From Candidatus Hydrogenedentota bacterium (GTDB taxonomy: Bacteria; Hydrogenedentota; Hydrogenedentia; Hydrogenedentales; SLHB01): a DNA stretch of 64,000 nucleotides. The DNA lies in NCBI GenBank assembly GCA_020849535.1, contig JADLGB010000037.1, forward strand, positions 28,814 to 92,813. The letters run 5' to 3'. The position numbers and the translations under genes were made by a program. The notes beneath the pieces were generated by a model, which was not told the DNA's origin, ran no database searches, and was given only the letters and a program-made list of their open reading frames with translations. Shown piece by piece: positions 19,378 to 48,467 of this stretch. Position 1 is the stretch's first letter; each line of letters begins with the position of its first letter.

Positions 19378-19454
<77 letters not shown>

Positions 19455-19463
19455 TTGCAAATC

Positions 19464-19494
19464 AAGGACTTACGGCAACGTAAGTCCTTTTTTT
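19464..19494 (+). terminator. Rho-independent terminator after the tRNA
   Basis: AAGGACTTACG-GCAA-CGTAAGTCCTT hairpin followed by a T7 run. Confidence 0.6.
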
Positions 19495-19615
19495 GTGCCC
19501 GAAAACGGCCCGGTGTTACTTAATTTGTTACTTGTGAAATCCGCCGGACCCGCCCGCCGCTCAAGGAGAGGACCCGCCACACAGACCTGGGCTCCAACAA
19601 GAAGGAATCTGTGTC

Positions 19616-24202: not shown

Positions 24203-24206
24203 GTCT

Positions 24207-26309
24207 CTATCGTTGCCTTCCGAATGATTCGGGAATCCGGAACACTGTCCGTTCCCGGAACTCTTGCTTCTTGCCATCGTTGTAGTCCGTCACCGGGCGG
24301 AGATAGCCCGTCACACGCGACCACACTTCCGTCTCGGCGCCGCAGCTGGGGCAGACGGAGTGCTCACCGCAGATATAGCCGTGGGTTGTGCACGTGCTGA
24401 ATGTCGGTGTAATGGACAGATACGGCAACTTGTACCGGCTGAAAATCCTGCGGATGAGGTGCTTGGCGGTACTCGTGTCGTCTATGCTCTCACCAAGAAA
24501 CAGGTGAAGCACCGTGCCGCCCGTGTAGAGCGACTGTAATTCGTCCTGCAGGTGGAGCACCTCGAAAATGTCGTCCGAGTATCCGACCGGAAGATGGCTC
24601 GAATTCGTGTAGTACGGCGCGGCATTGCCGGCGGTCTTGATGTCTGGGTATCTGGCCTTGTCGAGCATGGCCAGACGGTACGCCGCGCTCTCCGCCGGCG
24701 TCGCCTCGAGGTTGTATGGATGACCCGTTCGGGCCTGGACAGCAAGCAGACACTCGCGCATGTGCTGTAGGGTCTGAACGGCGAACCGCTGGCCCGCCTG
24801 GGCGGTTAGATTCTGCCCCACGAAATTCCACGCGGCCTCATTCATGCCAACGACGCCGATGGTACTGAAATGGTTGGCCCAATACTCGCCTCTTTGTTGC
24901 TTCGTTCCGCGGAGGTAGTGGGCCGAATAGGGGTAAAGCCCGTTCCCGGTCTGCTTCTCGATGACTTTGCGCTTGATCTCCAGGGAGGTTACGCCTATCT
25001 CCACCATTTGCTTCAACCGCGCTTTGAATTCCTTCGGCGTCTTGGATAGATAGCCGATGCGAGGCAGGTTGATGGTATAGACCCCAATCGAGCCCGTAAG
25101 CGGATTGCTTGCGAATAGCCCGCCGCCGCGGAATTCCAATTGGGTGAGGTCAATGCGTTTTCGGCAACACATGGCCACAACATCGTCCGGGGAGAGGTCG
25201 GAGTTGATGAAGTTGGCGAAGTATGGGCTGCCGTATTTGCAGGCGAGTCGCATGAACGCCTCAACGGAAGGCGAGTCCCAGTCCATATCGCCGGTCACGT
25301 TGATCGTAGGAACCGGGAACGTGAAGGCGCGCTCGGCTGCGTCTCCTTCAGTCATCACCTCGCAGAAAGCGCGGTTGAACAGGTCCATCTCGTTCTGGAA
25401 CTCACCGTAGGTCTCGGGGATGGCTTGTCCGCCGATCACCGCCGGTTGGTCTTTCAACTTCCCCGGCACGGTCAAGTCAAAGGTGAGGTTGGAAAAGGGA
25501 CACTGGAAACCTACCCGCGTGGGGACGTTCAGATTGAAGATGAATTCCTGGACGGCTTGTTTGACTTGGGCATAGTTCAGGCCGTCATGGCGAATAAAGG
25601 GCGCGCAGTAAGTGTCGATGCTGCTCCAGGCCTGGGCGCCGGCGGTCTCACCCTGGGTGGTGAAAGTGGAATTGACGACGTGACCCAAAAAGGACCGAAG
25701 GTGTTTGGCCGGCCGGCAGGCGACCTTGCCGCTGACTCCGCCGAATCCTTCCGTTAGAAGGGAATACAAGTTCCAGCCGGCGCAGTACGGGCCGAGGAAC
25801 CCCAGATCATGAATGTGTGCTGCGCCACCCTCGTGCGCTTCGCGAACCTCATCCGGATAGACCTCATGCAGCCAGTAGTTGCTGGTAAAGCACTCGCGGA
25901 CATAGTTGTTGAGGCCGTTGATGCTCTTCTGGATATTGGCGTTTTCCCGGACTCGCCAGTCTCGTTCCCCGAGGTAGTCGGAGAACATGTCGATTGTGGC
26001 GCCGATCAGGGCATCGTGATTTCGCGCCGCCGCCCGCTTCTGTCTGTACAGAATGTAGGCCTTTGCCGTGAGGGCATGCCTGTTCTCAATGAGTACGTTC
26101 TCTACAAGGTCCTGGATTTCCTCAACATGAGGGATGCTACTGGCGTACCTTTGCTTAGCCACGGCAACAACCTGCCGCGCCAAGGATTCCGCAAGTGTGG
26201 AATCGCCGCCGCCACACGCCACCGCAGCCTTGAAAATGGCGCGGGCAACTTTATCTACGTGAAACAGCTCGATTTGGTCACCGCGTTTTCGTATGTATTT
26301 GATCATCAC
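24207..26309 (-). CDS. nrdD: Class III (anaerobic) ribonucleoside-triphosphate reductase
   Basis: N-terminal ATP-cone (IRKRGDQIELFHVDKVARAI). MCCRKRIDL region. C-terminal Zn site CGEHSVCPSCG and glycyl-radical motif SRVTGYLRPV. Confidence 0.9.
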   Translation of the reverse strand: MMIKYIRKRGDQIELFHVDKVARAIFKAAVACGGGDSTLAESLARQVVAVAKQRYASSIPHVEEIQDLVENVLIENRHALTAKAYILYRQKRAAARNHDALIGATIDMFSDYLGERDWRVRENANIQKSINGLNNYVRECFTSNYWLHEVYPDEVREAHEGGAAHIHDLGFLGPYCAGWNLYSLLTEGFGGVSGKVACRPAKHLRSFLGHVVNSTFTTQGETAGAQAWSSIDTYCAPFIRHDGLNYAQVKQAVQEFIFNLNVPTRVGFQCPFSNLTFDLTVPGKLKDQPAVIGGQAIPETYGEFQNEMDLFNRAFCEVMTEGDAAERAFTFPVPTINVTGDMDWDSPSVEAFMRLACKYGSPYFANFINSDLSPDDVVAMCCRKRIDLTQLEFRGGGLFASNPLTGSIGVYTINLPRIGYLSKTPKEFKARLKQMVEIGVTSLEIKRKVIEKQTGNGLYPYSAHYLRGTKQQRGEYWANHFSTIGVVGMNEAAWNFVGQNLTAQAGQRFAVQTLQHMRECLLAVQARTGHPYNLEATPAESAAYRLAMLDKARYPDIKTAGNAAPYYTNSSHLPVGYSDDIFEVLHLQDELQSLYTGGTVLHLFLGESIDDTSTAKHLIRRIFSRYKLPYLSITPTFSTCTTHGYICGEHSVCPSCGAETEVWSRVTGYLRPVTDYNDGKKQEFRERTVFRIPESFGRQR

Positions 26310-26474: not shown

Positions 26475-27557
26475 TCAAGACGGGCTCCGCTGCGCCTGTA
26501 AAGAAGTGTCATCGGGCAATGGGGCATTGCCGCGCCGCCGAAAAAGCGAGCAGGAATCATCACAATAGGGCGTCACTGCGGAGTCCTCGCAGGCACTGCC
26601 GTGGTAGTGTTTCAGAAACGCGGCGGCGGCCTGTGCCTTGATCTCGTTCTCCGTGATGACTCTCTTGCCATCCCGCGGGTGGTTCTTCGTTGCCCACTGC
26701 TGAAGGGCGGCCATGGTAATGTCTGGGGGCAATCCTATTCTTCGCAGTTGTACAGCGAGGCGGAAGCAGGACACGCGCTGATTTTCGGACACGCCTTCTT
26801 GGAGCATCCGTCTCGCGCAAGGCGGCAGCGCCCCGGGCAATGGTTGGAATACGCCCAACGACATCCCGCCACCAGAATGGAATTGTCCGCCCAGCGGGAT
26901 ATCGTTCACCTCAATGATCTCGTCGAGAAGCGCTTCGGTGACCAACGCAACGGATTCAAGGAAGTCCCACTGATTGGCGTAGGGGCGAAGAGATCCATCC
27001 ACCACGTTGAGGAATACGGTGCGTCCTTTCGGGACGAGCGCACCAAACAAAGGGGCATTGATAAAATTCCCAAAACTCGTCGAGCCTACGGGGATACTAT
27101 CCTGCTTCGGGAACACCTCGGTCGCGGGCAGCTGGATTTCTTCTAGGACACGGCGAAACACAGCCCGCGCCTTCATTGCGTTTACCCCGTCCCCTTCCAT
27201 AAACGTCCAGGCGTGGAATCCCCGGCGCTTACTTCTCTCCAGGTAGCACGGCAGACCGTAATGTGCGAGCGCAGCGATGAAATGCAAGGGCGGCTGCGCG
27301 TCATCATCATCGAAGTCTGCGACCATTGCGCGGGTAGTCTCGCCGGTGAGGAGATAGACGCCATAGGGCCGCTTACCCGTGAGGTGTGCCAAGATTACGT
27401 CGGCGGTGACCGGCCGCTTGATTTGCCATGCCCGGCCGCCTGAGGCCTGGGCATAACTGCCGTAGACGTGCTCTAGGCCGGAGAATCGCGTCCTGAACAA
27501 CCGGATCTTGTTCGCCGTGCTGCGTGGCTTGTTTCGTGACATCAAAGCATATCCCAT
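26475..27557 (-). CDS. Archaeo-eukaryotic primase superfamily PrimPol with PriCT-like C-terminal region
   Basis: Motif I MVADFDDDD, motif II SKRRGFHAWTF, helical C-terminal half. Overlaps the upstream gene by 16 nt. Confidence 0.7.
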   Translation of the reverse strand: MGYALMSRNKPRSTANKIRLFRTRFSGLEHVYGSYAQASGGRAWQIKRPVTADVILAHLTGKRPYGVYLLTGETTRAMVADFDDDDAQPPLHFIAALAHYGLPCYLERSKRRGFHAWTFMEGDGVNAMKARAVFRRVLEEIQLPATEVFPKQDSIPVGSTSFGNFINAPLFGALVPKGRTVFLNVVDGSLRPYANQWDFLESVALVTEALLDEIIEVNDIPLGGQFHSGGGMSLGVFQPLPGALPPCARRMLQEGVSENQRVSCFRLAVQLRRIGLPPDITMAALQQWATKNHPRDGKRVITENEIKAQAAAAFLKHYHGSACEDSAVTPYCDDSCSLFRRRGNAPLPDDTSLQAQRSPS

Positions 27558-28132
27558 TCTGGCTGGTCCGGCAGGAAGTAGGCTTCCATGCCTGGTAAGA
27601 AGTAGTGGCCCGGATTTGGCAAGAAGGAGTCTCCGCGGTCCGGGGGGAAACCGTCGCTCGGACCGTGCGTGAATGCAACGCCATGTCCGGGCCGGAGGCT
27701 GTCGCCCGGATCCAGTAAGAAACCATCGCCTTGGTTCGGCTGGAAGGCAGCTATCGGATCCGGCATGAAGCCATCGCCCGGCTCCGGCAAGAAATAATCA
27801 AACGCGCCCGGCGCCGAAAGCCGCGGGTTCGCGTAGAGTTCATCGTTCGTGAGCACCCTATCCTCCAGCAGCATGCCATTGAAGGGGCGACGCAACCCAA
27901 ACAGGTCCACCGCCAGGGCACGGGCGTCGAATTCTGTGCGGCAGTCGAGACAGAGCCTTTTCTCATCGTGCCAGTGTTGCCCGAGGGGGTCGTCCTCGAT
28001 TAGCGCGTCGCGACACGGCCGACAAACTTGAAAGTCATCAAGGCGCCCATCAATGCCGCGGTCTACCCAGACCCGACGGTCACCTTCGTCGTTCTTTCGA
28101 AACAGCAGGTCTCGCGCAAATTCCTCCAGCAT
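27542..28132 (-). CDS. Zinc-ribbon protein with C-terminal GDxF(L/M/P)PDP-type degenerate repeats
   Basis: CRPC...CLDC cysteine pairs. Repeats EPGDGFMPDP / NQGDGFLLDPGDSLRPG / PSDGFPPDRGDSFLPNPGHYFLPG / AYFLPDQ. Confidence 0.5.
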   Translation of the reverse strand: MLEEFARDLLFRKNDEGDRRVWVDRGIDGRLDDFQVCRPCRDALIEDDPLGQHWHDEKRLCLDCRTEFDARALAVDLFGLRRPFNGMLLEDRVLTNDELYANPRLSAPGAFDYFLPEPGDGFMPDPIAAFQPNQGDGFLLDPGDSLRPGHGVAFTHGPSDGFPPDRGDSFLPNPGHYFLPGMEAYFLPDQPEWDML

Positions 28133-28248: not shown

Positions 28249-28884
28249 TCAAGGATGGAAGATGCCCCGCAACAGATCATCCGTGGCGGCGTAGTCCATG
28301 ATGACTGACGGCACAAAACGAACCAGTTCGTGGGGGGAAGCGTCTCGCAGGGGGAGCGGCAGAATATCCTTCCATCGTTCCTGTATCAGGACCGCTGTTT
28401 CGCACTGCATGTTCCACGGCAACTGCTGCCAAGCGGCCTGTACCGCGCGCCAGAGCATGTCCTTTCTTCGGGCCGTCTTGATTTCGTTTGCCACAGACGA
28501 CAGGGCGTGGCGTATTGCCTCGTCTCCCAGGGTCTGTGCGTCGTAAAGGAGTGCGTCGATGCCTTTGCCCCAAACGCCCCAGTACGTTTGTTCTAGACTC
28601 ATGCACGCATCCGCCAGGAGAGCCTCATGCTCGACCACGCGCCGAGGCGCCACAACACGATACAAGTTGGCAAGCAAGCGAGCCGTCTCATTCAGGAGGT
28701 ACTCGATGGTGACACACGACGCCGGCGCACGTTCCCGCAGGAACGAGGCCAGTTCCTTGTCCGCCGGTTCATCAATGAGAAGACGGCAACTCTTGCCGTC
28801 GCTAGCCGCCAAGGCCTTTCGGACGAATTTCCACGGATCTGTGGAAGCCTCACAGCGTGTCATAGGCGAAAACCTTCGGGTCAT
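28249..28884 (-). CDS. Helical protein, divergent fourth copy of the operon-specific ~190-aa helical domain
   Basis: Shares the block order VTIEYLLNETARLLANLYRVV ... GKGIDALLYDAQTLGDEA ... ERWKDILPLPL with the three clearer copies. Start uncertain (28863/28884/28953). Overlaps the upstream ATPase stop. Confidence 0.45.
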   Translation of the reverse strand: MTRRFSPMTRCEASTDPWKFVRKALAASDGKSCRLLIDEPADKELASFLRERAPASCVTIEYLLNETARLLANLYRVVAPRRVVEHEALLADACMSLEQTYWGVWGKGIDALLYDAQTLGDEAIRHALSSVANEIKTARRKDMLWRAVQAAWQQLPWNMQCETAVLIQERWKDILPLPLRDASPHELVRFVPSVIMDYAATDDLLRGIFHP

Positions 28885-31288
28885 CCACAAACTCGCCTCG
28901 GAGCGGCGCCGGGGCCCTGCCGCGACTTCGCAGAGCGGCGAGAGCCTGTTCACGCGTTACGCAATAGCGTGCGCGCGACACTTCCTTCGCCCGCTCGGCC
29001 ATGCCTGGCACTTCCGGCTCTCCCAGTGTTGGGGTAACTAGGCGAACGACATCCCGTCCTATTCGCGCGATGGCGTGTCTTGGTTCCAAGGACAGAAGTT
29101 CCCCAGGCGCAATACCGCCTCCCAGATTTCGAGCTACCATGGATTCATCTGCGGCCGTCACGGCGAAAGCGATGGTCGTTCCCACCACCCCCAGCGAATC
29201 AATGCGCTTGCGCGTTTCCATCTGACTCAGATACTGGTGGGCGAGGACCATGCTGCACTCGTACTTCCGCAGCTCCACGAGGATATTCTCGATGGAGTCC
29301 GTGGTGAATCGATGCACCTCATCGATGTAGATATGGCAGGGACGCCGCAGATGGGGCAACAGTTCACTGCGGGAAAGGGCGGCCTGGTGGATGAGCGCTA
29401 TAAGAAATGTGCCAAGGGTGTTGGCGGCCATCCCGACGGAACTGAGGTCGGCCAGGAAAATTCCGCGTTCATCCATGAGCCTTCGCAGATCGAAGGAACT
29501 GTGTGGATAGGCGAACATGAGTCCGAGCGTGTCGTGCAAAAGCAGTTTGGTCAGTTTGTGTTGGACGGGCGCGAAATCGGCCGGACCGTATCTGGGAAAC
29601 TCGTGCTCCCAGAAGTGACGTGCCTTCGGATTGTCCACCACGGCCAGAATGTCCTTGCACAGGCGTTCGCGCGCCGGATGCTTGGGAGTCAGGAGAATAG
29701 AGACATCCGACAGAGTGGCGTGACCGGTTTTCATGAACCCATAAAGGGCCTGGCGCAGAAGCGTCTCAAGACGGTCTCCCCATCCCGAAGATATGTGTGA
29801 GACACCATGAATGAATTCGTCGGCCACGCGGTCCGGTACGCCACCCTCCAGGAGATTCCACGCCGGGATGGCCTTCCCCCCGGGATCGAAATGGACCAAG
29901 CGATCAAGGTGCTCCTCTCGGAGGCGACTTAAGATTCCCTCGCTCAGGTCGCCGTGCGGGTCTACGACGAAGGTCGCCTCTCCTCGTTCGATGTCCCGAA
30001 GACACATCCCTTCCATGGTCTTCGACTTCCCCGTGCCAGGCCGGCCGATCAAGTGAATGTGCTGCATGCGCAACGAGTCCGGGACGAATACCGGGCGCGA
30101 CTCGCCCGCCCGCTCGAGTATCCCGACCAAGGTTCCCTCCGAGAAGATCTCGTCCCCATGCGGCAACGGAGACACTATGGGCATGGTGGAACCGGGGCCT
30201 TTGAGGGTGCTCAGGGGCGGTATGTGAAGCCATGAGCAGCACTCGAGACTATTCAAAAGTATGCCGCAGCGATGGGAGACTCCGCGGGTCAGCATGAGCT
30301 CGATGCCTTTCGTCCCGATTGCATCCCGAAACGAAATGTCTGTCACATACAGCAAGGGACGGCCTCCATGCTGAAACACGCCGAGAAAAGTCGTGAGAGC
30401 CCGAAGCCACGCCCGGCGTTCTTCTTCGCTGGATCCGAAGACGCCGACGCGGGCCAGCACGTGGAAGAAGGGCTTATCCGCGTGGGCCTTCCAGGATACC
30501 TCGTTCGACAGCGCGTTCAGCTGAGCCGAAGGGGTCTGTTGGGCGTAGGGTTGCGCGAGATGGTGGGCGCCATGCAACCGCGCCAGGTAGGACAGGTCGC
30601 GGAGCAACGCCACGTTCAAATGCCAATCGTGGTCGGGCGCCACGGGCTGTGCCAGTACCTGGAAAACACCCAGCATCCCCGGCGGCAAGCCGCTCAGAAT
30701 TCGCAGGAAGGGTTCCAGCGGCGAGAGGTGAAGCTCATTCGGGCGGGTGAGGAGCTCCGTATAGGGCGGCGGCGCCCACGTCTCAACAAAGGAGAACCGG
30801 TCCCAGACACCAAGTTCCAGTTGGTCCATGGGGTGATCTCGGAGAACGGTAAGCTCCCCTTCCGGGAAAATACCGCGGAACGCTGCTTGGCACATGGGCT
30901 CGTCGTCCTCGCGGCAAGCCAATGAGAACAGGAGCCGATCCCTGCCGCCTACAATGTCAAAGACGAGACGGTGCCGTAGACCCTGGAGCTGTTTCAGCAT
31001 CAATTCATTGCGAAGCCAGTCGCACGGGTGGTCGGGGGGTACCCACACCTGGAATCGCCGCCATTCGTTCGGCGCCGTGGGAGTTTCGGGAACGTACCAG
31101 GCTTCCTCCGCGCCGAGGAGCAAATCTTCGGGCTCCCGAAGCGGTCTGTAGGGGGGTTCCAATGCTACGGGCGCCGGTGCGATGTCCCCCAGACACCCTT
31201 TGGTGACCTCCAGTTCACAAAGGTGCGCCGCTTTCGCCGCAAGCATTGCGGACCGGCTCCGGGGAATGGGCACAGGGGCAGAAAACAC
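28850..31288 (-). CDS. TraD/VirD4-like FtsK-HerA superfamily ATPase with ~400-aa unknown N-terminal region
   Basis: Walker A LIGRPGTGKSKTM followed by VVDPHGDL. Walker B HIYIDEVHRF. MVLAHQYLSQM (coupling-protein-type AHQ motif). Confidence 0.7.
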   Translation of the reverse strand: MFSAPVPIPRSRSAMLAAKAAHLCELEVTKGCLGDIAPAPVALEPPYRPLREPEDLLLGAEEAWYVPETPTAPNEWRRFQVWVPPDHPCDWLRNELMLKQLQGLRHRLVFDIVGGRDRLLFSLACREDDEPMCQAAFRGIFPEGELTVLRDHPMDQLELGVWDRFSFVETWAPPPYTELLTRPNELHLSPLEPFLRILSGLPPGMLGVFQVLAQPVAPDHDWHLNVALLRDLSYLARLHGAHHLAQPYAQQTPSAQLNALSNEVSWKAHADKPFFHVLARVGVFGSSEEERRAWLRALTTFLGVFQHGGRPLLYVTDISFRDAIGTKGIELMLTRGVSHRCGILLNSLECCSWLHIPPLSTLKGPGSTMPIVSPLPHGDEIFSEGTLVGILERAGESRPVFVPDSLRMQHIHLIGRPGTGKSKTMEGMCLRDIERGEATFVVDPHGDLSEGILSRLREEHLDRLVHFDPGGKAIPAWNLLEGGVPDRVADEFIHGVSHISSGWGDRLETLLRQALYGFMKTGHATLSDVSILLTPKHPARERLCKDILAVVDNPKARHFWEHEFPRYGPADFAPVQHKLTKLLLHDTLGLMFAYPHSSFDLRRLMDERGIFLADLSSVGMAANTLGTFLIALIHQAALSRSELLPHLRRPCHIYIDEVHRFTTDSIENILVELRKYECSMVLAHQYLSQMETRKRIDSLGVVGTTIAFAVTAADESMVARNLGGGIAPGELLSLEPRHAIARIGRDVVRLVTPTLGEPEVPGMAERAKEVSRARYCVTREQALAALRSRGRAPAPLRGEFVDDPKVFAYDTL

Positions 31289-31343
31289 GAGGCCTCCTTT
31301 CCAAGAGAAGGCGGCGGAAAGGAGGCCAGTGTTTCAAGGTAAC

Positions 31344-31919
31344 TCAGCGGCGAACGGCCTGTCCTAACGAGCGAATGAGTTTCGGGTGCGCTTCGAGATA
31401 CCGCGGGAAGTGCACGAGCATTCTGGCCTCGTCTTCCCGCAACATGTCCTCTGGCAAGAGATGCGCCCACTTCCGCCTGTATTCCGCGACGGTGGCGAAG
31501 CGTTCCTGCGTGGACAAGCCGCACCAATAATGCGCCACGCGGGCCGCCACTTCATTGTCTGCGAGCTGTTCGGCGAAGCCATGCGCTGTGTCCCGAAAGA
31601 CGCGCCTCAGGCCGCCTTCAATCCCATACACCGCACGCCGCACTGCGAGACGCGGCCCGTCGGGCCCATAAAGCCGATGGAGTACTTCGGAACACCGGAC
31701 CCAGTCGTGGGCGGGATCGATCCACCGCCTCCCGGTTCCAAAGACAATGCCGTCCAAATGCACAAAGAATCGCACCATCAGGTTCCGGAATTCCACTTCG
31801 TCGCGCACGTCAGGACCTGTAACCGGAAACAAATCCATGGCATCGACTGCACGCCGAAGAATGGCATCGTACGTGCGGGATGGATGCAGACTATCGAGAA
31901 GAAGGTCGAGCTTCGTCAT
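31344..31919 (-). CDS. 191-aa helical protein (copy 3 of the operon-specific domain)
   Basis: GGAGGTG RBS 6 nt before ATG at 31919. Blocks VRDEVEFRNLMVRFFVHL, GIEGGLRRVF, EYRRKWAHLLPED. Confidence 0.6.
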   Translation of the reverse strand: MTKLDLLLDSLHPSRTYDAILRRAVDAMDLFPVTGPDVRDEVEFRNLMVRFFVHLDGIVFGTGRRWIDPAHDWVRCSEVLHRLYGPDGPRLAVRRAVYGIEGGLRRVFRDTAHGFAEQLADNEVAARVAHYWCGLSTQERFATVAEYRRKWAHLLPEDMLREDEARMLVHFPRYLEAHPKLIRSLGQAVRR

Positions 31920-31943
31920 GGAATACACCTCCGCCTTGTGCGC

Positions 31944-32522
31944 TTAGATGCGACGAAACACTGACGCCATCTGACGCGATGCTTGCAGCAGAGAACGAAT
32001 AAGTAGTTCGACATCCTTGGCATACCTCTCCGGGTGGTTGCGATCGATGCCGGGAAGCGTCGGCGAGTACGAGTCGATGAATTCTCGCACTGTGCGCACC
32101 CGGAGCTCCCAGTCGTCCGGCGGAAGGTAACGGTCTAAAACGTCGCGCATCTGATGTTCCAACGCTTCCGCCTTCATGGCGTCGCAGAGAACGTCCAGGA
32201 TGTGACGCAAGCCACCGTTCAGAGAGTCCAGGCAGTCGCGATATGCGGAAACCGCGTCGCCGCCTTGGCGCCGGAGTTCTTGATTCAACATCGACTTGCC
32301 TTGGCCCGCTGCCGTAGCGCGCGAAGGCGAGCTGCCGGGGGTGACGCATTCCCTGTATACATATTGCACGTAGTCCGCAAGGATATCCGTGAAATCTGGA
32401 TAGTCCCTGACCGAATTCGACGACGGCCGGTAGGCCAAACGCGTCTGGTCGAATGGTCTGGCGATTCGCTGCGCCAGCGTCACTTCGTCAAGTTCCTTCA
32501 GCATCGAATTCAGGCGACTCAT
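31944..32522 (-). CDS. 192-aa helical protein (copy 2 of the operon-specific domain)
   Basis: GGAGGA RBS 7 nt before ATG at 32522. Blocks RPFDQTRLAYRP, VRDYPDFTDILADYVQYVY, LNGGLRHILDVLCDAMK, YSPTLPGID. Confidence 0.6.
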   Translation of the reverse strand: MSRLNSMLKELDEVTLAQRIARPFDQTRLAYRPSSNSVRDYPDFTDILADYVQYVYRECVTPGSSPSRATAAGQGKSMLNQELRRQGGDAVSAYRDCLDSLNGGLRHILDVLCDAMKAEALEHQMRDVLDRYLPPDDWELRVRTVREFIDSYSPTLPGIDRNHPERYAKDVELLIRSLLQASRQMASVFRRI

Positions 32523-32542
32523 TTTCATATCCTCCATTCTTG

Positions 32543-34228
32543 TCAAAGTCGACGCAAAGTCTGCGTCATTTCGTTCAGGCACCGCGCTATAGCGCGGGCC
32601 AGGTCTTCCCACCTTGCAGTGAATCGCTCGATGGGCGCCTCACATAGGTCTACGGGCAGTAAGGATCCAAAGCGAGCGAAAACGGCCTGCACGAATTTCT
32701 CTCTGGCGCTGTCATTGCGCCCCTTCATGGCCGTAGTGAACGTGAACAGGACGCTTTTCTCGTAGTCTTTTTGTTTGCGAAAGTCGGCCATGGCATCCAG
32801 GATCGAGCGCATACCCCCGTTGACGCCGAGTTCGCCTTCCAGTTTCGCTCCTTCTATTCCACCCGCCCGCGCATAGGCTTCGTTGAGATAGGCCAAGGAT
32901 TCCGCCTCCAAGGCCGTTCGATCCGTCAGATCGAGGGTTACTCCCAGCTTCCCCATCAGGTGCACGTAGAAGGACATGATCACGTCCACAACGTCGTCCC
33001 AGGAATCACTTGTGACAAAACCCGGGTTGAACGTGAGGCGGGCTTCATCAATAGGACGACTAATTGCGCTCGATAGGAATTCCGCGCTCAAGCGAGAAAG
33101 GACAAGATCCGTTGTATCCTCCGCCGCGCTGTAATCCACCTCTTGTGCGCTTACCACCGGAGGAATTGCTGAGGAAACACAAGCATGCGAGAGGACACGA
33201 CCCTCGACAGCCTGAAGCAACACGGTGACGTCTGCGGCGTCTTCAGTACCGCCGAGAAGGCCCACCTCTAGGCATCGTCCAAAATCCGTAAGAGGAAACT
33301 GGAGGCTGCGCCGGCGCAAGGGCGCCAAGCCGGCCAGTGTGTGCATGAGACGTTTTCCCATCCCGGATGGATAGTGGCCCTCGCGCATATGGTGGCCCAG
33401 AAACGCCGCGAGCAGAGCTTCCGCTCCCGGTCGGTCGGACTGCGTCAAAGCGGCTGCCGTGGCCGACCAAAAGCGCTCATGGTGATTCTTCAGCAAGTGG
33501 GCGGCAGCGCGACGGACCGGGGATTCGGGAAAGCAATTAGGCACGGCATGCCCGAAGATGCCTTTGCGAAGAATTGCGAGGGGGATATCGAGCTCTTGAA
33601 CGGCGACCATCAAGGCTTCGGCGACATCATGAACAGGGGTGGCATGAAACTGCTCCCGAGCTTCCGCCAGGGCCGCTTCGATTCGTTCCGCCTCCGCCGG
33701 GGCCATGACATTGAGGGACCCGTCGGCCCCAAAGGCCGGATAGACGAACTCCCTCACCTCATGTTGTTCCCGGGCGGCCTGCACTTTGGCAGGCAAGGCC
33801 CCTACCGGCCCAATCGTTCCGATGAGGGATATCAGTGCGCCGGTGAGAATTACGTCTTGACGCAGCGGCAGTTCAAGAGCCGACGACAACATGGTCAGGA
33901 AGAGGGGAAGTTCAACAGAGTGTCCCCCCTGCACAGCATCAGCCCCGTACACCCCGATGGCGTCGAGGCCTTCGATTGTCACTTCCCAGATCGGTATGGA
34001 TGCGCCCAAGGCATCGAGGATTTGAACTACCGTCGGAACCACGGTCGCTTCCGCATGTGCTATGGCATCCGGGTCCAGGCCTATTCGACTCCGCATGCGC
34101 AAGCGTTCCTCGCCCGGCCCTTCAGACGAAACCGCCAGTACGGCGGAAACAAACGCGCGGCCAGCGGACGGCACGACGATGACCGTCCGGGCGCGCCCTA
34201 TAATTCCTACTGTGGATGAGCACATCAT
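32543..34228 (-). CDS. Lon-protease-like (S16) N-terminal domain fused to the operon-specific helical domain; no AAA+ module
   Basis: N-terminal ~175 aa: GGHSVELPLFLTMLSSALELPLRQDVILTGALISLIGTIGPVGALPAKVQAA parallels the Lon DGPSAG...TGE...GG.KEK layout, with Ser and Lys positions retained. C-terminal blocks RPIDEARLTFNP, SDSWDDVVDVIMSFYVHL, VNGGMRSILDAMADFRK, FGSLLPVD. Confidence 0.55.
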   Translation of the reverse strand: MMCSSTVGIIGRARTVIVVPSAGRAFVSAVLAVSSEGPGEERLRMRSRIGLDPDAIAHAEATVVPTVVQILDALGASIPIWEVTIEGLDAIGVYGADAVQGGHSVELPLFLTMLSSALELPLRQDVILTGALISLIGTIGPVGALPAKVQAAREQHEVREFVYPAFGADGSLNVMAPAEAERIEAALAEAREQFHATPVHDVAEALMVAVQELDIPLAILRKGIFGHAVPNCFPESPVRRAAAHLLKNHHERFWSATAAALTQSDRPGAEALLAAFLGHHMREGHYPSGMGKRLMHTLAGLAPLRRRSLQFPLTDFGRCLEVGLLGGTEDAADVTVLLQAVEGRVLSHACVSSAIPPVVSAQEVDYSAAEDTTDLVLSRLSAEFLSSAISRPIDEARLTFNPGFVTSDSWDDVVDVIMSFYVHLMGKLGVTLDLTDRTALEAESLAYLNEAYARAGGIEGAKLEGELGVNGGMRSILDAMADFRKQKDYEKSVLFTFTTAMKGRNDSAREKFVQAVFARFGSLLPVDLCEAPIERFTARWEDLARAIARCLNEMTQTLRRL

Positions 34229-34923
34229 GGAGTTTGCACGCTGCCTTCCAAGATGATCTCAAGGCTGCCGTTTTCCAGGCCTGAAAAGGTACGCAGAACG
34301 ATTCCGCCTGCATGACACGCGATCACTCGAGATGGATGAGACTTGTCCCCGACACCCTCGGCCGCAAGTCGAAGGGGTTCCGGGCGGGAACTCGTACGAA
34401 TGAGCAAGTCTGCTTCTTCCAAGCGGCCTTCCCAAAGCAGCCGTCCCGTCGAAAAGGTCACGCGATACTCACCAGGGACAAGGCCCGGTATGACTGTACT
34501 TTCACCGGGCGAGACCAACCGGGCGCGGACGAACTCCAACTCCCGCCGGTGTACCACCACATCGACGGACGAGTCGAGCGGCCCGAAGGCCGTGACGACT
34601 CGGCGGAGTGCATCGAGCCGTATTCGCAGGTCTGGGCGATGCACAAGCTCTCTGTCCAGATCTTCAACATGACGGGGGCTGGATAGGATGGCCTCTAGGA
34701 AATCCAGGGAGTCGGTGTCCGCGTCGTCATCGCAGGAAGCAAGCGATCTCAACTCGCGTTTCACCTCTCCCATGAAGTCTCCGAACTGGGCCCAGCCTTT
34801 ATGGAATTCCGGTATCTTGCCCAAGTCTTTGATAGTCTGAAATGCCTCCTGGAGTGAATGCAGCGGGTCCGTAGACCGTAGCGCGTCCAGAATGATTGGG
34901 GCGAAAAACACATCATGAACCAT
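34225..34923 (-). CDS. Hypothetical protein (helical N-terminus, beta-rich C-terminus)
   Basis: Start taken at MVHDVFF (34923). 4-nt overlap with the downstream Lon-like gene. C-terminal VIPGLVPGEYRVTFSTGRLLWEGRL looks like a beta-sandwich strand pattern. No catalytic motif seen. Confidence 0.45.
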   Translation of the reverse strand: MVHDVFFAPIILDALRSTDPLHSLQEAFQTIKDLGKIPEFHKGWAQFGDFMGEVKRELRSLASCDDDADTDSLDFLEAILSSPRHVEDLDRELVHRPDLRIRLDALRRVVTAFGPLDSSVDVVVHRRELEFVRARLVSPGESTVIPGLVPGEYRVTFSTGRLLWEGRLEEADLLIRTSSRPEPLRLAAEGVGDKSHPSRVIACHAGGIVLRTFSGLENGSLEIILEGSVQTP

Positions 34924-36127
34924 GGGCGGTACCCCCCTGATGCTTCCGGCTTCCACTGGCGATGGCCGATACCCGTTCCCACAAACCGACGGACTTGGCC
35001 GCCTCAAGCAGCCAAGGCACCCGAGCCACAATCTTGGCGATGTTGACGTAAAGATGGGGAACTTGGACGCGATTGCTATTGCTTTTTAGCCACTCGCGGC
35101 CTGCAAAGCGGCTGAATGTTGCTCGACTAAGGCCATGACGGGAGGACAAAGCGGCGTCCGTGAATTCCCCAGATACCAGATTGTTCAGCACGTCGAGAAC
35201 TAGATTCCGCACTCCTTCGACGCCCAAGCCGCGAATTGCAGTCGGTAGCACCTCAATACCGGCGGCCTTCTCGTCAGCAACGAATTCCTGAACCGAGGAA
35301 CTCCGAACGCCTCGGAAACCAAGCGGCAAGTCAACTTCCCACGGCGGTGCCGGGATATCCCCCGCAAGGTTTTCATGCAGCGCAACAAAGCCGGGCTTCG
35401 GAAACCAAGCGTCTATGGCTGCCTGAATACGTCCGGCCTCGCGGGAATCCGATGGGTCGAATTGCCCTATATGCGCTTCGAGCCAAAGGCGGCGTTGCTT
35501 GCCAGGGAAGTCCTTGGGAAATCGCACCGTCACATGTGATCCGTTCACAGGCCATCTATACCGCGATGTCAGCAAATCCTCTTCCCGGCGTGCCTCCTTG
35601 AGGCAGTAGCCAAGCTGATGAAACACTAGACCTTGCAGCAAAGCAGCCTCGCGGCTCTCCAATTCCGCCTCGGTATCGGGTGGCTTCGCGGCGAAGTCCT
35701 CGTGCACAAGCTTTGTGACCGCGGCGAAAGTCTTGCTGCAGTCCGTCTCCCTAAGCTTTCGCGTAGGCGGCGAAGCCGATTCCTCGGCTTCCTGGTGGTC
35801 AGGGCTTACAGAAGCCTCTGTCTCTACGGGCAGCCGTGACCACCGGTCCATCACAAGTTGCGTTGCCCGATCGATGATGTCGCCAGTGCGGTGGCGGGTC
35901 CCCATGCTCTTTGATGTCTCGATGCGCCAGACCTCGATGAACTCACCAAAGGTCATCAAACCCCTGCCAGCCACTTCGAACAGCCTACGGCTATGAAATT
36001 CATCGAGAGCAGTCCGGTCAGCATTCTCGGCGATGCACCCGGCCAGTTCGGATGCTCGCAGCATGCGCAGGTGACGCGCGTCCAACCCTCGATTCAATTT
36101 ATCTTCGCGTCGGTCTTGCACAGTCAT
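34913..36127 (-). CDS. Hypothetical protein with possible C-terminal HTH
   Basis: 404 aa. 4-nt overlap with the upstream gene. LSSRHGLSRATFSRFAGREWL resembles a helix-turn-helix. Function unknown. Confidence 0.45.
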   Translation of the reverse strand: MTVQDRREDKLNRGLDARHLRMLRASELAGCIAENADRTALDEFHSRRLFEVAGRGLMTFGEFIEVWRIETSKSMGTRHRTGDIIDRATQLVMDRWSRLPVETEASVSPDHQEAEESASPPTRKLRETDCSKTFAAVTKLVHEDFAAKPPDTEAELESREAALLQGLVFHQLGYCLKEARREEDLLTSRYRWPVNGSHVTVRFPKDFPGKQRRLWLEAHIGQFDPSDSREAGRIQAAIDAWFPKPGFVALHENLAGDIPAPPWEVDLPLGFRGVRSSSVQEFVADEKAAGIEVLPTAIRGLGVEGVRNLVLDVLNNLVSGEFTDAALSSRHGLSRATFSRFAGREWLKSNSNRVQVPHLYVNIAKIVARVPWLLEAAKSVGLWERVSAIASGSRKHQGGTAHGS

Positions 36128-36876: not shown

Positions 36877-37208
36877 GACACTATCTCCTTATGTCGTTTG
36901 TGGTCGCGCGAATCACGCGGCCCTGTCGTGTGGTCTAGGTGGCAACCCCTATGCGTGTCGTGTTTGGAGGGAATGACGAAAGAACGAAGACCGCCTGGAC
37001 CGCGGGCATAGGATTCGGCCGAGCTGTTTTGGGCACTGTTCTCTGAAAGAGCAGAAGAATAGCCGGCATTCGAAAACGGCTGGGGCAGGAACGGAGACGA
37101 ACTGGAATCACCTTCAGAGAATCCGTAACTGGCCCCAGGTATGGTCCCTAAGATATGCAGTTTGATCTCGCTCGCATTGTCATTGCAACTGTGATTGCTC
37201 ACGTTCAT
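36873..37208 (-). CDS. Small Ser-rich low-complexity protein
   Basis: 111 aa. 4-nt overlaps with the kinase gene (upstream) and the TM-protein gene (downstream). SEGDSSSSPFLPQPFSNAGYSSALSENSAQNSSAES. Coding status supported mainly by the coupling. Confidence 0.4.
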   Translation of the reverse strand: MNVSNHSCNDNASEIKLHILGTIPGASYGFSEGDSSSSPFLPQPFSNAGYSSALSENSAQNSSAESYARGPGGLRSFVIPSKHDTHRGCHLDHTTGPRDSRDHKRHKEIVS

Positions 37209-38041
37209 TTCTCCAGGCAGCGTTGGATAACGCGCCGTATGTGCTCCGGCACTCCGCCGAGTCGCGCGGGCGTTTCGAAGAGATGGCCGGTGCGTTGCCT
37301 ATCGGCACCGCCGGAAAACGGCGGCCTACATTCTCGACTGAAGATTTCATAGCCGATACAGCCCAGTGCGTAGCAGTCGGCTCGGGCGCCCACGCGCTGG
37401 GGATCCTCGCCCCGCCACAACTCCGGCGCGGTGTAGGCGGGCGTCGAATACACCCGATGTGAGGGGCTTTCCTTGACGTTTTTCTCATGACGAAGCGATA
37501 TCGACGATGCGAGGTCGCACAGTACCGGACTGGATGCGGTCAGAAGAACGTTGGCTGGCTTCAGGTCCAAGTGTAAGAATCCCTGCGCATGAAAGACGGC
37601 AACGGAATCGCACAGCCCTGCGAAGAGTTGGAGTCCCTTTTCAAGGCGGTAGCCATGGCTCGCCTCATGGCGCTTGAGCCAGTCCCGCAGGGTCCCTGCC
37701 GGCACGAATTCCAAAGACACCGCCACAAACTGCCGAGCCGCCCACGCCACTTCGTAGAGCCCGAGCGCGGCAACGACGCACGACCGGTCATGCAGCTTCC
37801 TGCGCACGTCTACTTCACGGCGCACCGCGCGCCATCCATGCCCGTTCCCGCGAGGGGCAAACTTGAGTGCGACCTGCCGGGCGTATTTCGTATCCAGTGC
37901 GCGATACACCCTGCCGTGCCCGCCGTCGCCCAGCTTTGCCTGGAGGACGAAGCGGCCGTCAGCCGAGCTCAGCCCGTGAACGGCGGCTTCGGCCCTGCAG
38001 TCTGCCTCGAAGACCCATTCGCTTTTGATAGTTGCCGCCAT
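37205..38041 (-). CDS. Hanks-type Ser/Thr protein kinase, catalytic domain only
   Basis: Gly-rich loop LGDGGHGRVY. VALKF lysine. Catalytic loop HLDLKPANVL. DLA in place of DFG. TPAYTAPE activation-segment end. Confidence 0.8.
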   Translation of the reverse strand: MAATIKSEWVFEADCRAEAAVHGLSSADGRFVLQAKLGDGGHGRVYRALDTKYARQVALKFAPRGNGHGWRAVRREVDVRRKLHDRSCVVAALGLYEVAWAARQFVAVSLEFVPAGTLRDWLKRHEASHGYRLEKGLQLFAGLCDSVAVFHAQGFLHLDLKPANVLLTASSPVLCDLASSISLRHEKNVKESPSHRVYSTPAYTAPELWRGEDPQRVGARADCYALGCIGYEIFSRECRPPFSGGADRQRTGHLFETPARLGGVPEHIRRVIQRCLEK

Positions 38042-38044
38042 GTC

Positions 38045-44263: not shown

Positions 44264-44353
44264 TACAGAGGTTCGTAGCAGAGGTGACCCAAAAACCAAG
44301 CTCTCGATGTCCTTCAAGGACTTGCATGTTGCAGAGGTTGGTGGCAGAGGTTG
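44264..44353 (+). promoter_or_regulatory. Two pairs of 13-bp-phased direct repeats (GCAGAGGTT-like) in the divergent promoter region
   Basis: TACAGAGGTT (44264), TAGCAGAGGTG (44276), TTGCAGAGGTTG (44329), TGGCAGAGGTTG (44342). Located between the HerA operon and the NACHT gene start. Confidence 0.35.
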
Positions 44354-44397
44354 AAGGTGTGGTAAGACATGGCCACGCTTGGTTTGGAGTTCGAAGC

Positions 44398-48132: not shown

Positions 48133-48422
48133 CATACCTTGGACGAGCAAAGCGATAGGAGCGCCCTAGTGTTTTCCAACAGTGGAGTTATTCAGGCGGC
48201 GTTAGAACGGGACGTACAGAACGTTTGGCCCTTGATTTTGACTGACAACGGTATATGCTGCTCAACCGAGCAGACCGCAAGGCAAGCGGCAAGGCTGCGG
48301 AACTAGGAGATAGTGAGATCGCGGTTTCTGGGGATCCTATTCACAGTGACGCTTCATGGATTTGGCTCTCTGTATGGGGCTGTATGGCGCAAATTCTCGG
48401 ATTATCCCGACATCATGCACAC

Positions 48423-48461: not shown

Positions 48462-48467
48462 GGTGCG

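Follow-up and report, generated by a model that had tools for sequence, protein, structure and literature searches.

A nine-helix domain in four diverged copies, one fused to a Lon-like peptidase, in a conserved cassette of integrative elements from uncultured bacteria

Actinomycete AICEs such as those of the pSAM2/pMEA300 type, which integrate at tRNA genes and replicate by themselves, combine a tyrosine integrase located by a tRNA gene with an AEP prim-pol and an ATPase of the FtsK/TraD superfamily, and satellites of the P4/PICI type combine an integrase with a primase. Both sets of backbone genes recur in the locus described here, a window (the whole stretch of DNA analysed) of 64,000 nt from a Candidatus Hydrogenedentota bacterium (GCA_020849535.1, contig JADLGB010000037.1, positions 28,814-92,813, forward strand), in which all coordinates are given. 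It contains a helical domain of about 190 residues, labelled HD, of which copies A, B and D are free and copy C lies on a Lon-like protein (Lon-HD). In contrast to AICEs, however, the hosts are uncultured phyla of the Gram-negative type and the ATPase is soluble, and neither AICEs nor P4/PICI satellites have a counterpart to Lon-HD, A, B, D, the proteins g404 and g268 or the recurrent RNR of the present elements.

The ATPase shares with the type IV coupling proteins (T4CP) TrwB/TraD/VirD4 a P-loop domain with an all-alpha insert, and its overall two-part architecture aligns with VirB4/TrwK. T4CPs have small helical partners, and here too small helical proteins are encoded on either side of the ATPase gene. 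In the F plasmid the C-terminal tail of TraD docks on the helical TraM tetramer, an arrangement of which the disordered linker and conserved acidic-aromatic tail of the present ATPase may be reminiscent. However, the membrane anchor of T4CPs is missing, as is any membrane protein anywhere in the cassette, the relaxase and channel genes of a T4SS are missing from the window cassette, and no PDB entry, TraM-type proteins included, resembles HD in sequence or fold. An S16-type Lon fold encoded with a hexameric-type DNA-motor ATPase is also found in the ring-shaped DNA motors RadA/Sms, ComM and BREX BrxL, and the RadA Lon-like domain (5h45) was weakly touched by our Lon profile (E 0.003). In comparison with these proteins and with ATPase-less Lon-like peptidases, the protein described here is a polypeptide separate from the ATPase, keeps the Ser-Lys dyad, lacks AAA+ and carries a C-terminal HD.

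HerA/FtsK-centred 'capture' conflict systems related to DndFGH and to BREX represent a further group of relatives (PMC10853773, PMC12839542). As in these systems, and in the HerA-effector defence pairs SIR2-HerA and DUF4297-HerA, a soluble HerA/FtsK ATPase is central to a multi-gene operon which, like those of the capture systems, also has accessory sensor-like and enzyme components. In contrast, none of the capture-system partners (nucleases, PglZ, an in-operon ORC/Cdc6-type ATPase, wHTH arrays) is present here, while a Lon-type peptidase, an AEP and four HD paralogues are partners not described in PMC10853773 and PMC12839542.

Four copies of one helical domain

All four HD reading frames are present on the minus strand where an earlier note on positions 28249-34228 had placed them (Table 1), and a six-frame search of the window with the domain HMM returned exactly four places, the next match having E=0.15. 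In the Lon-like protein the HMM match spans residues 380-571 of the stop-to-stop frame. Together with the profile comparisons of all six pairs described below, this confirms that one helical domain of ~190 aa occurs four times. The fusion of one copy to a Lon-like protein, likewise proposed in that note, stands, whereas its count of two stand-alone copies has to be raised to three, as D, which it had set apart as divergent, is itself a stand-alone protein.

Table 1. Features of the window, with strand and supporting evidence
Feature	Position	Strand	Evidence and remarks
tRNA-Met, then tyrosine integrase	19378..20815 (tRNA 19378-19454; integrase 19616-20815)	+	ARAGORN; Phage_integrase 4.9e-10
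Class III (anaerobic) RNR nrdD and activase nrdG	23477..26309	-	co-oriented, directly downstream of primase
AEP-type primase-polymerase	26475..27557	-	last conserved cassette gene; orthologues in 22 loci
g196, small Zn-ribbon-like protein with repetitive tail	27542..28132	-	CxxC...CxxC in sequence
HD copy D, stand-alone, 204 aa	28249..28863	-	gene call P0106, start 28863; domain HMM E=1e-37
Soluble HerA/FtsK-superfamily ATPase, 798 aa, VirB4/TrwB-like fold	28850..31246	-	gene call P0001, start 31246
HD copy B, stand-alone, 191 aa	31344..31919	-	gene call P0105, start 31919; domain HMM 6e-48
HD copy A, stand-alone, 192 aa	31944..32522	-	gene call P0104, start 32522; nine-helix AF2 model
HD copy C, C-terminal ~190 residues (about 370-561) of Lon-like protein	32546..33121	-	domain HMM 1.3e-44
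S16 Lon-type peptidase domain (residues ~1-175) and ~200-residue middle region, same 561-aa protein	33122..34228	-	
g268, ~232 aa from likely start	34225..34923	-	orthologues in 12 loci; overlaps Lon start by 4 nt
g404	34913..36127	-	orthologues in 10 loci
Ser/Thr kinase (278 aa here) and g628, accessory upstream module	37205..39931	-	Pkinase 2.8e-28

Pairwise comparison within the window gave clear support only for A and the Lon C-terminus (BLASTP E=3e-11 over 196 aa); B matched the Lon C-terminus at 6e-4 and A at 0.013, and D had no significant BLASTP match to any other copy, so that a 'divergent copy' could not be proven from the window alone. By comparison, when profiles of orthologues gathered from about 25 related loci were aligned with HHalign, the similarity was significant for all six pairs, with probabilities of 99.0-100% and E values of 4e-18 to 1e-41 over 177-193 columns (B versus the other copies 99.0-99.4%; the Lon C-terminal copy versus the others 99.4-100%; D versus A, B and Lon-Ct 99-99.9%, and still 99.0-99.9% with a strictly defined D set). 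The negative controls from the same loci, g404, g268, AEP and the Lon middle region, reached at most 2.7% probability (E>=0.017) against each copy, and window A matches the D-position proteins of other loci at 1e-9 to 1e-12. A resemblance by chance or composition among unrelated proteins, as might be suspected for helical, Leu/Arg/Ala-rich proteins of a 59% GC genome and as the lack of a pairwise match for D and the value of just 0.013 for A and B could suggest, is refuted by the full-length profile matches in six of six pairs, the transitive matches via orthologues and the controls, all below 3%. All four copies derive from one domain and are paralogues that diverged long ago. The four ordered motif blocks that had been noticed by eye are also seen in the alignment, whose invariant columns include L158 and P159.

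The AlphaFold2 model of copy A consists of nine helices (pLDDT 89.9, pTM 0.84). Columns conserved in all copies are mainly hydrophobic, Gly or Pro (P.D.A..F, GGl, LP), and the alignment contains no polar or catalytic residue common to all of them. Searches of Pfam, NCBIfam, PADLOC and PHROGs returned no family at E<=0.1 for copies A and D and nothing but one stray sub-threshold match for copy B, and when 79 HD members were compared singly with Pfam, no family was matched by more than two members (best E 0.003). The best match of the HD profile to PDB sequences had E 0.034, and that of the model E 1.5 with TM<=0.25 in the PDB (Foldseek) and E 0.48 in BFVD. The domain, which the earlier reader had not recognised, thus has no significant match in Pfam, NCBIfam, PADLOC, PHROG, PDB or BFVD, and mapping it to a well-known family failed in all libraries searched. 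Judged from the model and the alignment, HD is a previously undescribed, predicted nine-helix and apparently non-enzymatic domain of ~190 residues. Its family comprises about 1,900 clusters at 50% identity in metagenomes, which are unannotated. Mean orthologue identity differs between the paralogues but is steady for each (A 0.50, B 0.40, Lon-Ct 0.31, D 0.28; for comparison, ATPase 0.43 and AEP 0.51), copy A being the most conserved and on par with the primase, and D the fastest-evolving paralogue; D and Lon-Ct are the fastest-evolving proteins of the cassette. The C-termini of HD-A, SSxFRR(L/F), and of Lon-HD are conserved as well.

The Lon-like peptidase and the soluble ATPase

On the single window sequence Lon_C scored 8.7e-4 with 19.3 bits, below the Pfam cut-off of 21.1, and the NCBIfam Lon models match only a peptidase core of ~60 residues with 13-25 bits against cut-offs above 500. 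The profile of the orthologues, in turn, matched the LonB protease domains 1xhk (1e-10) and 1z0c (2e-8) in the PDB. The catalytic residues align to those of LonB, with Ser in G-x-S and Lys in P-x-K-hydrophobic-x-A-A, and neither S104 nor K148 varies among 14 orthologues. By its sequence the protein falls within S16, having a Lon_C fold with an intact Ser-Lys dyad, and is a predicted peptidase. Assignment as a canonical ATP-dependent Lon (LonA/LonB) was rejected, as the 561-aa protein has no AAA+ module, and a fifth HD copy in the middle region was ruled out by the HHalign controls.

One HD copy is always fused to this peptidase with its intact dyad, and the free HD proteins might be substrates or regulators with which Lon-HD pairs homotypically, cleaving them or being inhibited by them, as a switch of the element, for example in induction or maintenance. 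Among the paralogues, it is the Lon-borne copy that comes closest to A (HHalign score 263) and to D (222), and extra or degraded HD copies occur in three related loci (L013, L016, L023; L-numbers denote related loci carrying the cassette or ATPase relatives). However, such a switch appears improbable, given that no cleavage-site motif or degron was identified, that three strictly retained free paralogues exceed the needs of a simple pair, and that D is translationally coupled to the gene for the ATPase, not to that for the protease.

The ATPase consists of an alpha/beta N-terminal region of ~400 aa, a P-loop ATPase with a helical insert, a disordered linker and a conserved C-terminal tail, which is acidic-aromatic (..F/Y-x-Y-D-E/T-F/L). 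Walker A (GRPGTGKS) and Walker B-like (IYIDEVH) motifs are present, and PF10412 TrwB_AAD_bind was matched at 5e-9 (35.9 bits against a cut-off of 20.5). Its AF2 model has a pLDDT of 82, falling below 50 for residues 791-812; over the whole length Foldseek aligned it with TrwK/VirB4 (~850 columns, E 6e-14), and over ~420 columns with TrwB (E 8e-13, TMt 0.65). No hydrophobic segment that could serve as a TM anchor was found in the first 600 residues, and the N-terminal 400 are predicted to be soluble alpha/beta. Hence the designation TraD-like, given previously, holds for the TrwB-type P-loop domain with its all-alpha insert but not for the membrane anchor, while the whole-length model aligns with VirB4. 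In a comparison of the ATPase profile with the PDB, defence HerA proteins and DptH were matched as strongly as TrwB. The nearest plasmid matches were mostly Streptomyces plasmids (80 of 97 records), with 23-31% identity over the ATPase half.

A conserved cassette and the proposed role of HD

The cassette has the order g404, g268, Lon-HD, A, B, VirB4/TrwB-like ATPase, D, (Zn-ribbon), AEP primase, and each HD copy forms its own orthologous group at a fixed single-copy position in about 20 loci. Its hosts belong to at least six phyla (Planctomycetota, Hydrogenedentota, Desulfobacterota/Thermodesulfobacteriota, Zixibacteria, Ignavibacteriae, Bacteroidales). The genes are tightly packed, overlapping or lying 20-24 nt apart. 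As had been stated for the HD copies in general, the ATPase gene is bracketed, namely by the genes of B and D; the start of D overlaps the ATPase stop by 14 nt, and D orthologues directly follow the ATPase gene in almost every related locus that reaches past it. The modules {Lon-HD, A, B} and {ATPase, D} remain linked even if inverted (L014, L022). Near more distant ATPase relatives (L028-L080), HD, Lon, g404, g268 and AEP are missing. The nine conserved cassette proteins all lack the TM-type segments, N-terminal or internal, by which T4SS channel parts are marked, and the scan of window genes returned no T4SS or relaxase family of Pfam; a Replic_Relax gene lies upstream in one related locus (L004). 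Neither g268 nor g404 has a Pfam or PDB match, and a C-terminal motif of g404 (GLSKATxSRFAG) resembles a helix-turn-helix on visual inspection only. The Zn-ribbon-like g196 is an optional member with orthologues only in L001 and L007, its position being taken by a 94-aa gene in L081.

The four HD copies are most likely assembly or adaptor subunits. The earlier note had offered two alternatives, hetero-oligomeric assembly or diversified specificity subunits, and on the gene and protein sequences the former appears to fit better, because the copies form four separate orthologous groups whose positions are each kept across at least six phyla, copy A is conserved like the primase (50% mean identity), the genes overlap or are 20-24 nt apart, and a polar or catalytic residue common to all copies is missing. 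Specificity subunits would fit D and the copy on the Lon-like protein, which evolve faster (28-31% identity), but not A and B. We tentatively favour, at a level of confidence just short of calling it probable, HD copies as hetero-oligomerising adaptors within a soluble machine that forms the backbone of tRNA/tmRNA-integrating elements and acts in replication or processing. In such a machine the HD fold would be a hetero-oligomerisation or adaptor module, and A, B and D would pack with the copy on the protease into a pseudo-symmetric scaffold tethering the Ser-Lys peptidase to the ATPase and, via the ATPase, to the primase. The conserved C-terminal tails, ..YDEF-COOH in the ATPase and ..FRRL-COOH in HD-A, may mediate docking, and the assembly would serve replication or processing of the excised element DNA. 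Physical assembly, stoichiometry, tail docking and the role in replication or processing are all inferred.

The nearby kinase, beta-propeller protein, STAND NTPase, MoxR/vWA pair and AEP-TOTE clade fit defence or conflict as well as replication, and the fast evolution of the D and Lon-borne copies could mean an arms race, not a relaxed scaffold role. The cassette might accordingly be anti-phage or anti-plasmid defence cargo, with HD paralogues sensing invaders and switching on a Lon, ATPase or AEP effector. The kinase matches PADLOC mad6 (3.5e-36) and the ATPase mad8 (5e-8, 30.8 bits); the AEP falls within the Pfam 'TOTE conflict system' clade (PF22548 AEP-TOTE, 103.5 bits with the cut-off at 27, covering positions 59-229 of the 230 in the profile), besides matching the primase phrog_21866 at 3e-18; several loci have kinase-TPR and beta-propeller genes upstream; STAND NTPase and MoxR/vWA genes share the island; and HerA/FtsK-centred capture is an established theme (PMC10853773, PMC12839542). 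However, a defence role seems somewhat unlikely. PADLOC matches are limited to the kinase and the ATPase and far below family level, and the scan detected no defence system. Furthermore, the HD paralogues are orthologously conserved rather than shuffled, with A 50% identical across phyla, the cassette and not the cargo is constant beside several kinds of integrase and different tRNA targets, two RNR classes were recruited to the same position, which is unusual for defence systems, and the kinase module, with orthologues of kinase and g628 in L001, L009, L019 and L081, belongs to a subset of elements only. In MADS the MAD6 kinase, MAD7 and MAD8 are mandatory, plus a methyltransferase (10.1101/2023.03.30.534895), and apart from the weak kinase/MAD6 and ATPase/mad8 matches there is no likeness here, methyltransferase and specificity subunit being missing; MADS was rejected, as the kinase scored just 86.5 bits against NF047741 MAD6 (cut-off 460) and no MAD7 or methylase was matched. 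TOTE is described in PMC12458937 as TPR, OB, TBP and Effector, with a TPR-OB(CSD) fusion and a TATA-binding-protein-like component. Although the present AEP is of the TOTE clade above the Pfam threshold, TPR-OB fusion and TBP-like Pfam domains were not detected in the cassette proteins, of which g404 and g268 have unassigned folds. Faint TPR matches occur on the kinase orthologue in L081, and g628 is beta-propeller-like in an orthologue.

Integrative-element setting

The mobile-element setting of primase, RNR and integrase was overlooked in the earlier note. In 14 related loci an integrase gene follows downstream of primase or RNR, and in seven of these (L004, L008, L009, L010, L014, L021, L025) it adjoins a tRNA or tmRNA gene. 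The nrdD/nrdG pair follows the primase also in L001 and L007, and a class II RNR occupies this place in six other loci. It is the cassette, not the surrounding cargo, that forms the constant part beside varied integrases and different tRNA targets. Across at least six phyla of uncultured bacteria, mobile elements that integrate beside tRNA or tmRNA genes have this cassette as their conserved core. Downstream of it there is usually an RNR, a tyrosine integrase beside a tRNA or tmRNA gene, or both, and the RNR often continues the cassette in its own orientation. We identified neither a replication origin nor a helicase loader or a partition function, and no tRNA-derived repeat marking the far element end was found in the window or in the 10-kb flanks of eight loci.

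RNR genes are common in phages and rare in plasmids, and HerA/FtsK-family ATPases package DNA in several virus lineages. The twofold recruitment of RNR genes and the tRNA-adjacent integration with a tyrosine integrase could thus point to a novel temperate virus-like agent, in which the ATPase would be the packaging motor, Lon a maturation protease and HD nucleoprotein or capsid-like proteins; the phage-like polymerase/primase, Gp88-like and anti-restriction-like genes of the island are in line with this, as is the lack of recognisable capsid, terminase and T4SS genes among the proteins scanned. In contrast, no ATPase relative was found in 2.9 million IMG/VR viral contigs and no close relative of ATPase or HD among 50,697 phage records, BFVD gave no match to the HD model, there is no sign of particle formation, and the N-terminal part of the ATPase resembles VirB4 in the structural alignment rather than known packaging ATPases, all of which makes such an agent very unlikely. 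A bolder version of the adaptor reading is that the four-HD scaffold joins a VirB4/T4CP-type ring ATPase to a Lon-type peptidase ring, with the AEP, in a new kind of cytoplasmic machine, as the replication or propagation core of an unrecognised and possibly virus-like class of tRNA-integrating elements found in at least six bacterial phyla. We consider this unlikely; such a machine would in effect be a split, non-AAA+ ATP-dependent protease or a DNA-protein processing engine.

If the favoured adaptor reading is true, HD represents a sizeable unannotated protein family with a confidently predicted fold that has no match in PDB or BFVD, and poorly studied anaerobic phyla harbour a new conserved integrative-element backbone combining a soluble VirB4/TrwB-like ATPase, a Lon-type peptidase and an AEP primase. 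One domain duplicated fourfold into a hetero-oligomeric adaptor between motor and protease would then offer a concrete, testable case, and annotation pipelines would gain a marker for these elements. Single-domain matches are insufficient for labelling the cassette a conjugation (TraD) or defence (MADS/TOTE) system.

Elsewhere in the island of the window, the protein g534 is a phage-like polymerase/primase, Gp88-like and anti-restriction-like genes are present, and a STAND NTPase accompanies the MoxR/vWA pair. At 62551-63303 lies a second, related integrase fragment, which is a possible marker of the element's right end.

Four paralogous copies of one helical domain

The five genes covered by the earlier note (Lon-HD, A, B, ATPase and D) lie in a dense operon on the minus strand (26.4-40 kb), in which the note had described a helical domain, here termed HD, in four copies, two of them stand-alone, one fused to a Lon-like protein and one divergent. 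In BLASTP comparisons, copy A matched the C-terminus of the Lon-like protein (3e-11, 196 residues), as did copy B (6e-4), and A matched B at 0.013, while nothing significant was obtained for D against any other copy, so that the BLASTP pairs by themselves supported the four-copy claim in part but not in full. However, when orthologues of each copy were taken from related loci, which had been found via the ATPase family, comparing the four sets with one another as profiles connected all six pairs with 99.0-100% probability (E 4e-18 to 1e-41, 177-193 aligned columns), and 99.0-99.9% was retained with a narrower D set of proteins whose best hit was D. D-position proteins of other loci also matched window copy A directly (1e-9 to 1e-12). 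Negative controls from the same loci, namely the conserved cassette proteins g404 and g268, the primase-polymerase (AEP) and the Lon middle region (residues 175-372), reached 2.7% at most against the HD profiles, and an HD HMM run on the six-frame translation of the entire window found four sites and no more. The claim of four copies is thus borne out, the copies are ancient paralogues, and chance as the source of their similarity is excluded, but three copies are stand-alone and one is fused. A fifth copy in any of the control proteins was rejected on the same values, and a duplication inside HD was rejected at 0.1% (half against half).

The AlphaFold2 model of copy A, built from a 46-sequence homologue alignment, consists of nine helices (pLDDT 89.9, pTM 0.84). 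Most of the columns that the four paralogue groups have in common hold hydrophobic residues, Gly or Pro; the shared features include an N-terminal P-x-D-x-A-x3-F motif, an F-x3-F-x2-H helix, a G-G-L turn preceding the longest helix and an L-P turn. No conserved set of polar residues of catalytic kind was present in the alignment across the four groups, and HD is a domain without a shared catalytic motif. The statement that the domain is not recognised also held, since single HD sequences found no family in Pfam, NCBIfam, PADLOC or PHROGs, 79 members compared individually with Pfam gave scattered single hits only, the HD profile reached a best E of 0.034 against PDB sequences, and Foldseek searches with the model remained at E 1.5 (TM <= 0.25) for PDB and E 0.48 for BFVD. 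A profile search run exhaustively over 1.84 billion cluster representatives returned 1,910 proteins at E <= 1e-3, with 1,378 reaching <= 1e-10; among the 150 matches listed, almost every one was about 190 aa long, and all homologues with a source name were annotated as hypothetical proteins, with no precomputed Pfam hits. Comparison of HD with annotated phages and plasmids gave zero matches, and it is very improbable that an unrecognised virus-like element uses the HD proteins as structural proteins.

The conserved cassette and its enzymes

In about 20 related loci the same order recurred: g404, g268, Lon-HD, A, B, ATPase, D, in some cases a small Zn-ribbon protein, and the AEP primase. These loci came from MAGs of Planctomycetota, Hydrogenedentota, Desulfobacterota/Thermodesulfobacteriota, Zixibacteria, Ignavibacteriae and Bacteroidales, all sequences being MAG- or metagenome-derived. 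The HD paralogues form four separate orthologous groups, each with a fixed position, and the Lon-type peptidase, the VirB4/TrwB-like ATPase and the AEP co-occur strictly with them in fixed order; in two rearranged cassettes (loci L014 and L022), {Lon-HD, A, B} and {ATPase, D} were each shifted as a block. Farther ATPase relatives (L028-L080, largely from Patescibacteria and others) had no HD, Lon, g404, g268 or AEP nearby. Mean pairwise identity among orthologues of the same loci was highest for the AEP (0.51) and A (0.50), followed by the ATPase (0.43), B (0.40), the Lon protein (0.33), g268 (0.32), the Lon-borne HD (0.31), g404 (0.30) and D (0.28). The genes are tightly coupled: in the window g268 and the Lon start share 4 nt, 20 nt separate Lon from A and 24 nt A from B, the ATPase stop and the D start have 14 nt in common, and the end of g196 runs into the start of the AEP gene.

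Features of the cassette and its surroundings, in window positions
Feature	Positions	Strand	Length (aa)	Remarks
tRNA-Met, then tyrosine integrase	19378-20815			integrase 19616-20815
Phage polymerase/primase-like protein	21847-23451	minus	534	phrog_10537 (1e-57), phrog_29234, phrog_19930 ('DNA polymerase/primase'); no Pfam hit
nrdD + nrdG	23477-26309	minus		class III RNR
g196	27542-28132	minus		Zn-ribbon-like
HD copy D	28249-28863	minus	204	start from gene call P0106
ATPase	28850-31246	minus	798	start from gene call P0001; C-terminus 28850-28915
HD copy B	31344-31919	minus	191	start from gene call P0105
HD copy A	31944-32522	minus	192	start from gene call P0104; C-terminus 31944-31985
Lon-HD protein	32543-34228	minus	561	C-terminus 32543-32580
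Ser/Thr kinase	within 36124-38041	minus	278	
Second HerA/FtsK-like ATPase	41087-43801	minus	904	weak DUF87 hit
Conflict-system-like genes	44284-53842			
Replication and anti-defence genes	57063-61702			Cdc6/ORC-like AAA+ 59306-60619; DnaQ-like exonuclease 60932-61702
Integrase-like ORF	62551-63303	plus		

The enzymatic parts of the cassette belong to known superfamilies. Residues ~1-175 of the Lon-like protein matched LonB protease domains in profile searches (1xhk, 1e-10; 1z0c, 2e-8) with the Ser of G-x-S and the Lys of P-x-K-L-x-A-A aligned, and the corresponding S104 and K148 were unchanged in 14 orthologues, while no AAA+ module was found in this protein with Pfam and NCBIfam. That the HD proteins are substrates or regulators of this protease is improbable. 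The ATPase sequence matched TrwB_AAD_bind; its AlphaFold model (pLDDT 82) aligned over the whole length with TrwK/VirB4 (E 6e-14) and in the C-terminal half with TrwB (TMt 0.65), and its sequence profile placed it at roughly the same distance from defence-type HerA, from DptH and from TrwB. Its matches among annotated phages and plasmids were at the level of the ATPase domain only (23-31% identity), and no relative was found in IMG/VR; the cassette as such is missing from annotated phages and plasmids and, judged by the ATPase, from IMG/VR. The primase falls into the Pfam 'AEP-TOTE' clade of AEPs (103.5 bits). The cassette proteins are soluble, with membrane segments in none of the nine conserved ones, and thus do not form a conjugative channel; a conjugative T4SS was rejected for the same reason, and membership in MADS was rejected after PADLOC and NCBIfam profile tests.

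Three of the proteins end in conserved tails that, judged by sequence, look like docking peptides. In the ATPase, a low-confidence linker (residues 791-812, pLDDT < 50) leads to a conserved acidic-aromatic F/Y-x-Y-D-E/T-F/L motif (e.g. FAYDTL, FEYDEF, LVYDEF), and SSxFRR(L/F) in HD-A and L(R/K)xL in Lon-HD are conserved across orthologues.

Copy number and integrity of the module vary among loci, with Lon-HD and A partly duplicated in tandem, alongside ATPase and Lon fragments, in L013 (3142-8191), two additional A-type copies beyond D in L016 (7775-10240) and an additional B-like copy upstream of g404 in L023 (981-1541). The HD-ATPase and g268-Lon fusions of L021 (8055-11926) were rejected as informative architectures, as they look like deletions in a decaying locus. 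The small protein g196 has an N-terminal CxxC...CxxC and then a tail in which GDGF(L/M)PDP-like units are repeated, and its orthologues elsewhere comprise 88-114 aa only and have no repeat tail.

Integrative elements carrying the cassette

Beyond the primase, and in the same orientation, the window encodes a class III ribonucleotide reductase (RNR; nrdD and nrdG), a pair also found after the primase in L001 and L007, whereas a class II RNR (Ribonuc_red_lgC + TSCPD) occupied this position in L002, L003, L004, L017, L019 and L025; in L004 it overlaps with the stop of the primase gene. The occurrence of two RNR classes at one position suggests that dNTP synthesis was recruited into the operon independently. 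A downstream tyrosine integrase was present in 14 related loci, and in L004, L008, L009, L010, L014, L021 and L025 it adjoins a tRNA or tmRNA gene, the tRNAs differing by locus. In the window, where the 534-aa phage-like protein lies between nrdG and the integrase, tRNA-Met and the integrase likely mark where the integrated, cassette-bearing element ends on the left (attL side). The cassette is thus linked to integrase, tRNA gene and RNR, and its recurrence beside varied integrases, tRNAs and RNRs indicates that, within a family of integrative elements, it stays constant while integrase type, target and upstream genes vary; in a subset of loci the upstream genes encode, among others, proteins of kinase-TPR and beta-propeller type and a second HerA-like ATPase.

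A second element boundary or attR was not found in the window or in the flanks of related loci. The ORF at the far end of the window is 41% identical at its N-terminus (E 1.7e-26) to the integrase and apparently represents the N-terminal part only, with no tRNA-derived direct repeat beside it; it may be where a ~43-kb element ends on the right, or part of a second, tandem or degraded element.

Possible function of the cassette and neighbouring genes

Taken together, these observations tentatively point to a machine in which HD scaffolds peptidase and ATPase for action on element DNA, a reading that we consider possible and slightly short of even. HD would be a hetero-oligomerisation or adaptor fold, three free subunits and the protease-borne copy building a pseudo-symmetric scaffold that would link the peptidase to the ATPase ring, possibly with the conserved C-terminal tails as docking peptides. 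The machine would work on the replication or processing of the element's own DNA, which would explain both the primase in the operon and the repeated recruitment of RNR. The tail of TraD docks on the helical TraM tetramer, and docking of tails on an HD scaffold would be analogous.

The main alternative, that the elements carry the cassette as a defence or conflict system in which the HD copies are sensors, is rather unlikely; it would accord with the kinase, beta-propeller and STAND genes of the neighbourhood, with the TOTE clade of the AEP and with D and the Lon C-terminus evolving fast, but each HD paralogue is orthologously stable, the cassette is linked to RNR, and it is the cassette rather than its surroundings that is invariant.

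The general theme of tRNA-integrating elements with integrase, AEP and FtsK/TraD-like ATPase is known and also seen here, and the cassette alternatively fits the known theme of HerA/FtsK-centred multi-gene modules. In the libraries and literature searched there was no counterpart of the HD family, its four-fold use, g404, g268, the ATPase-less Lon-HD fusion or a soluble VirB4-like ATPase with a docking-type tail, and literature searches found no account of this cassette. The cassette is built around a new domain family, HD; it is doubtful whether it represents a motor-protease machine or an element class that is categorically new.

The Ser/Thr kinase is shorter than its orthologues, which comprise 493-576 aa with a TPR-like tail; in place of this tail the window has a 111-aa ORF and g250 (250 aa, C-terminal hydrophobic segment), the latter having no homologue in the related loci. 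The second large HerA/FtsK-like ATPase also occurs in L004 (1002-3881), L019 (1-597) and L081 (1-189), upstream of the cassette, and some elements thus have two such motors. The conflict-system-like genes encode a STAND/NACHT-type NTPase (1282 aa), a SAP-domain protein, a MoxR AAA+ ATPase, a vWA/DUF2201 metallopeptidase-like protein and a Gp88-like protein. Farther along, an anti-restriction-like protein (phrog_7245), the Cdc6/ORC-like AAA+ protein and the DnaQ-like exonuclease are mobile-element-type replication and anti-defence genes of the same island.
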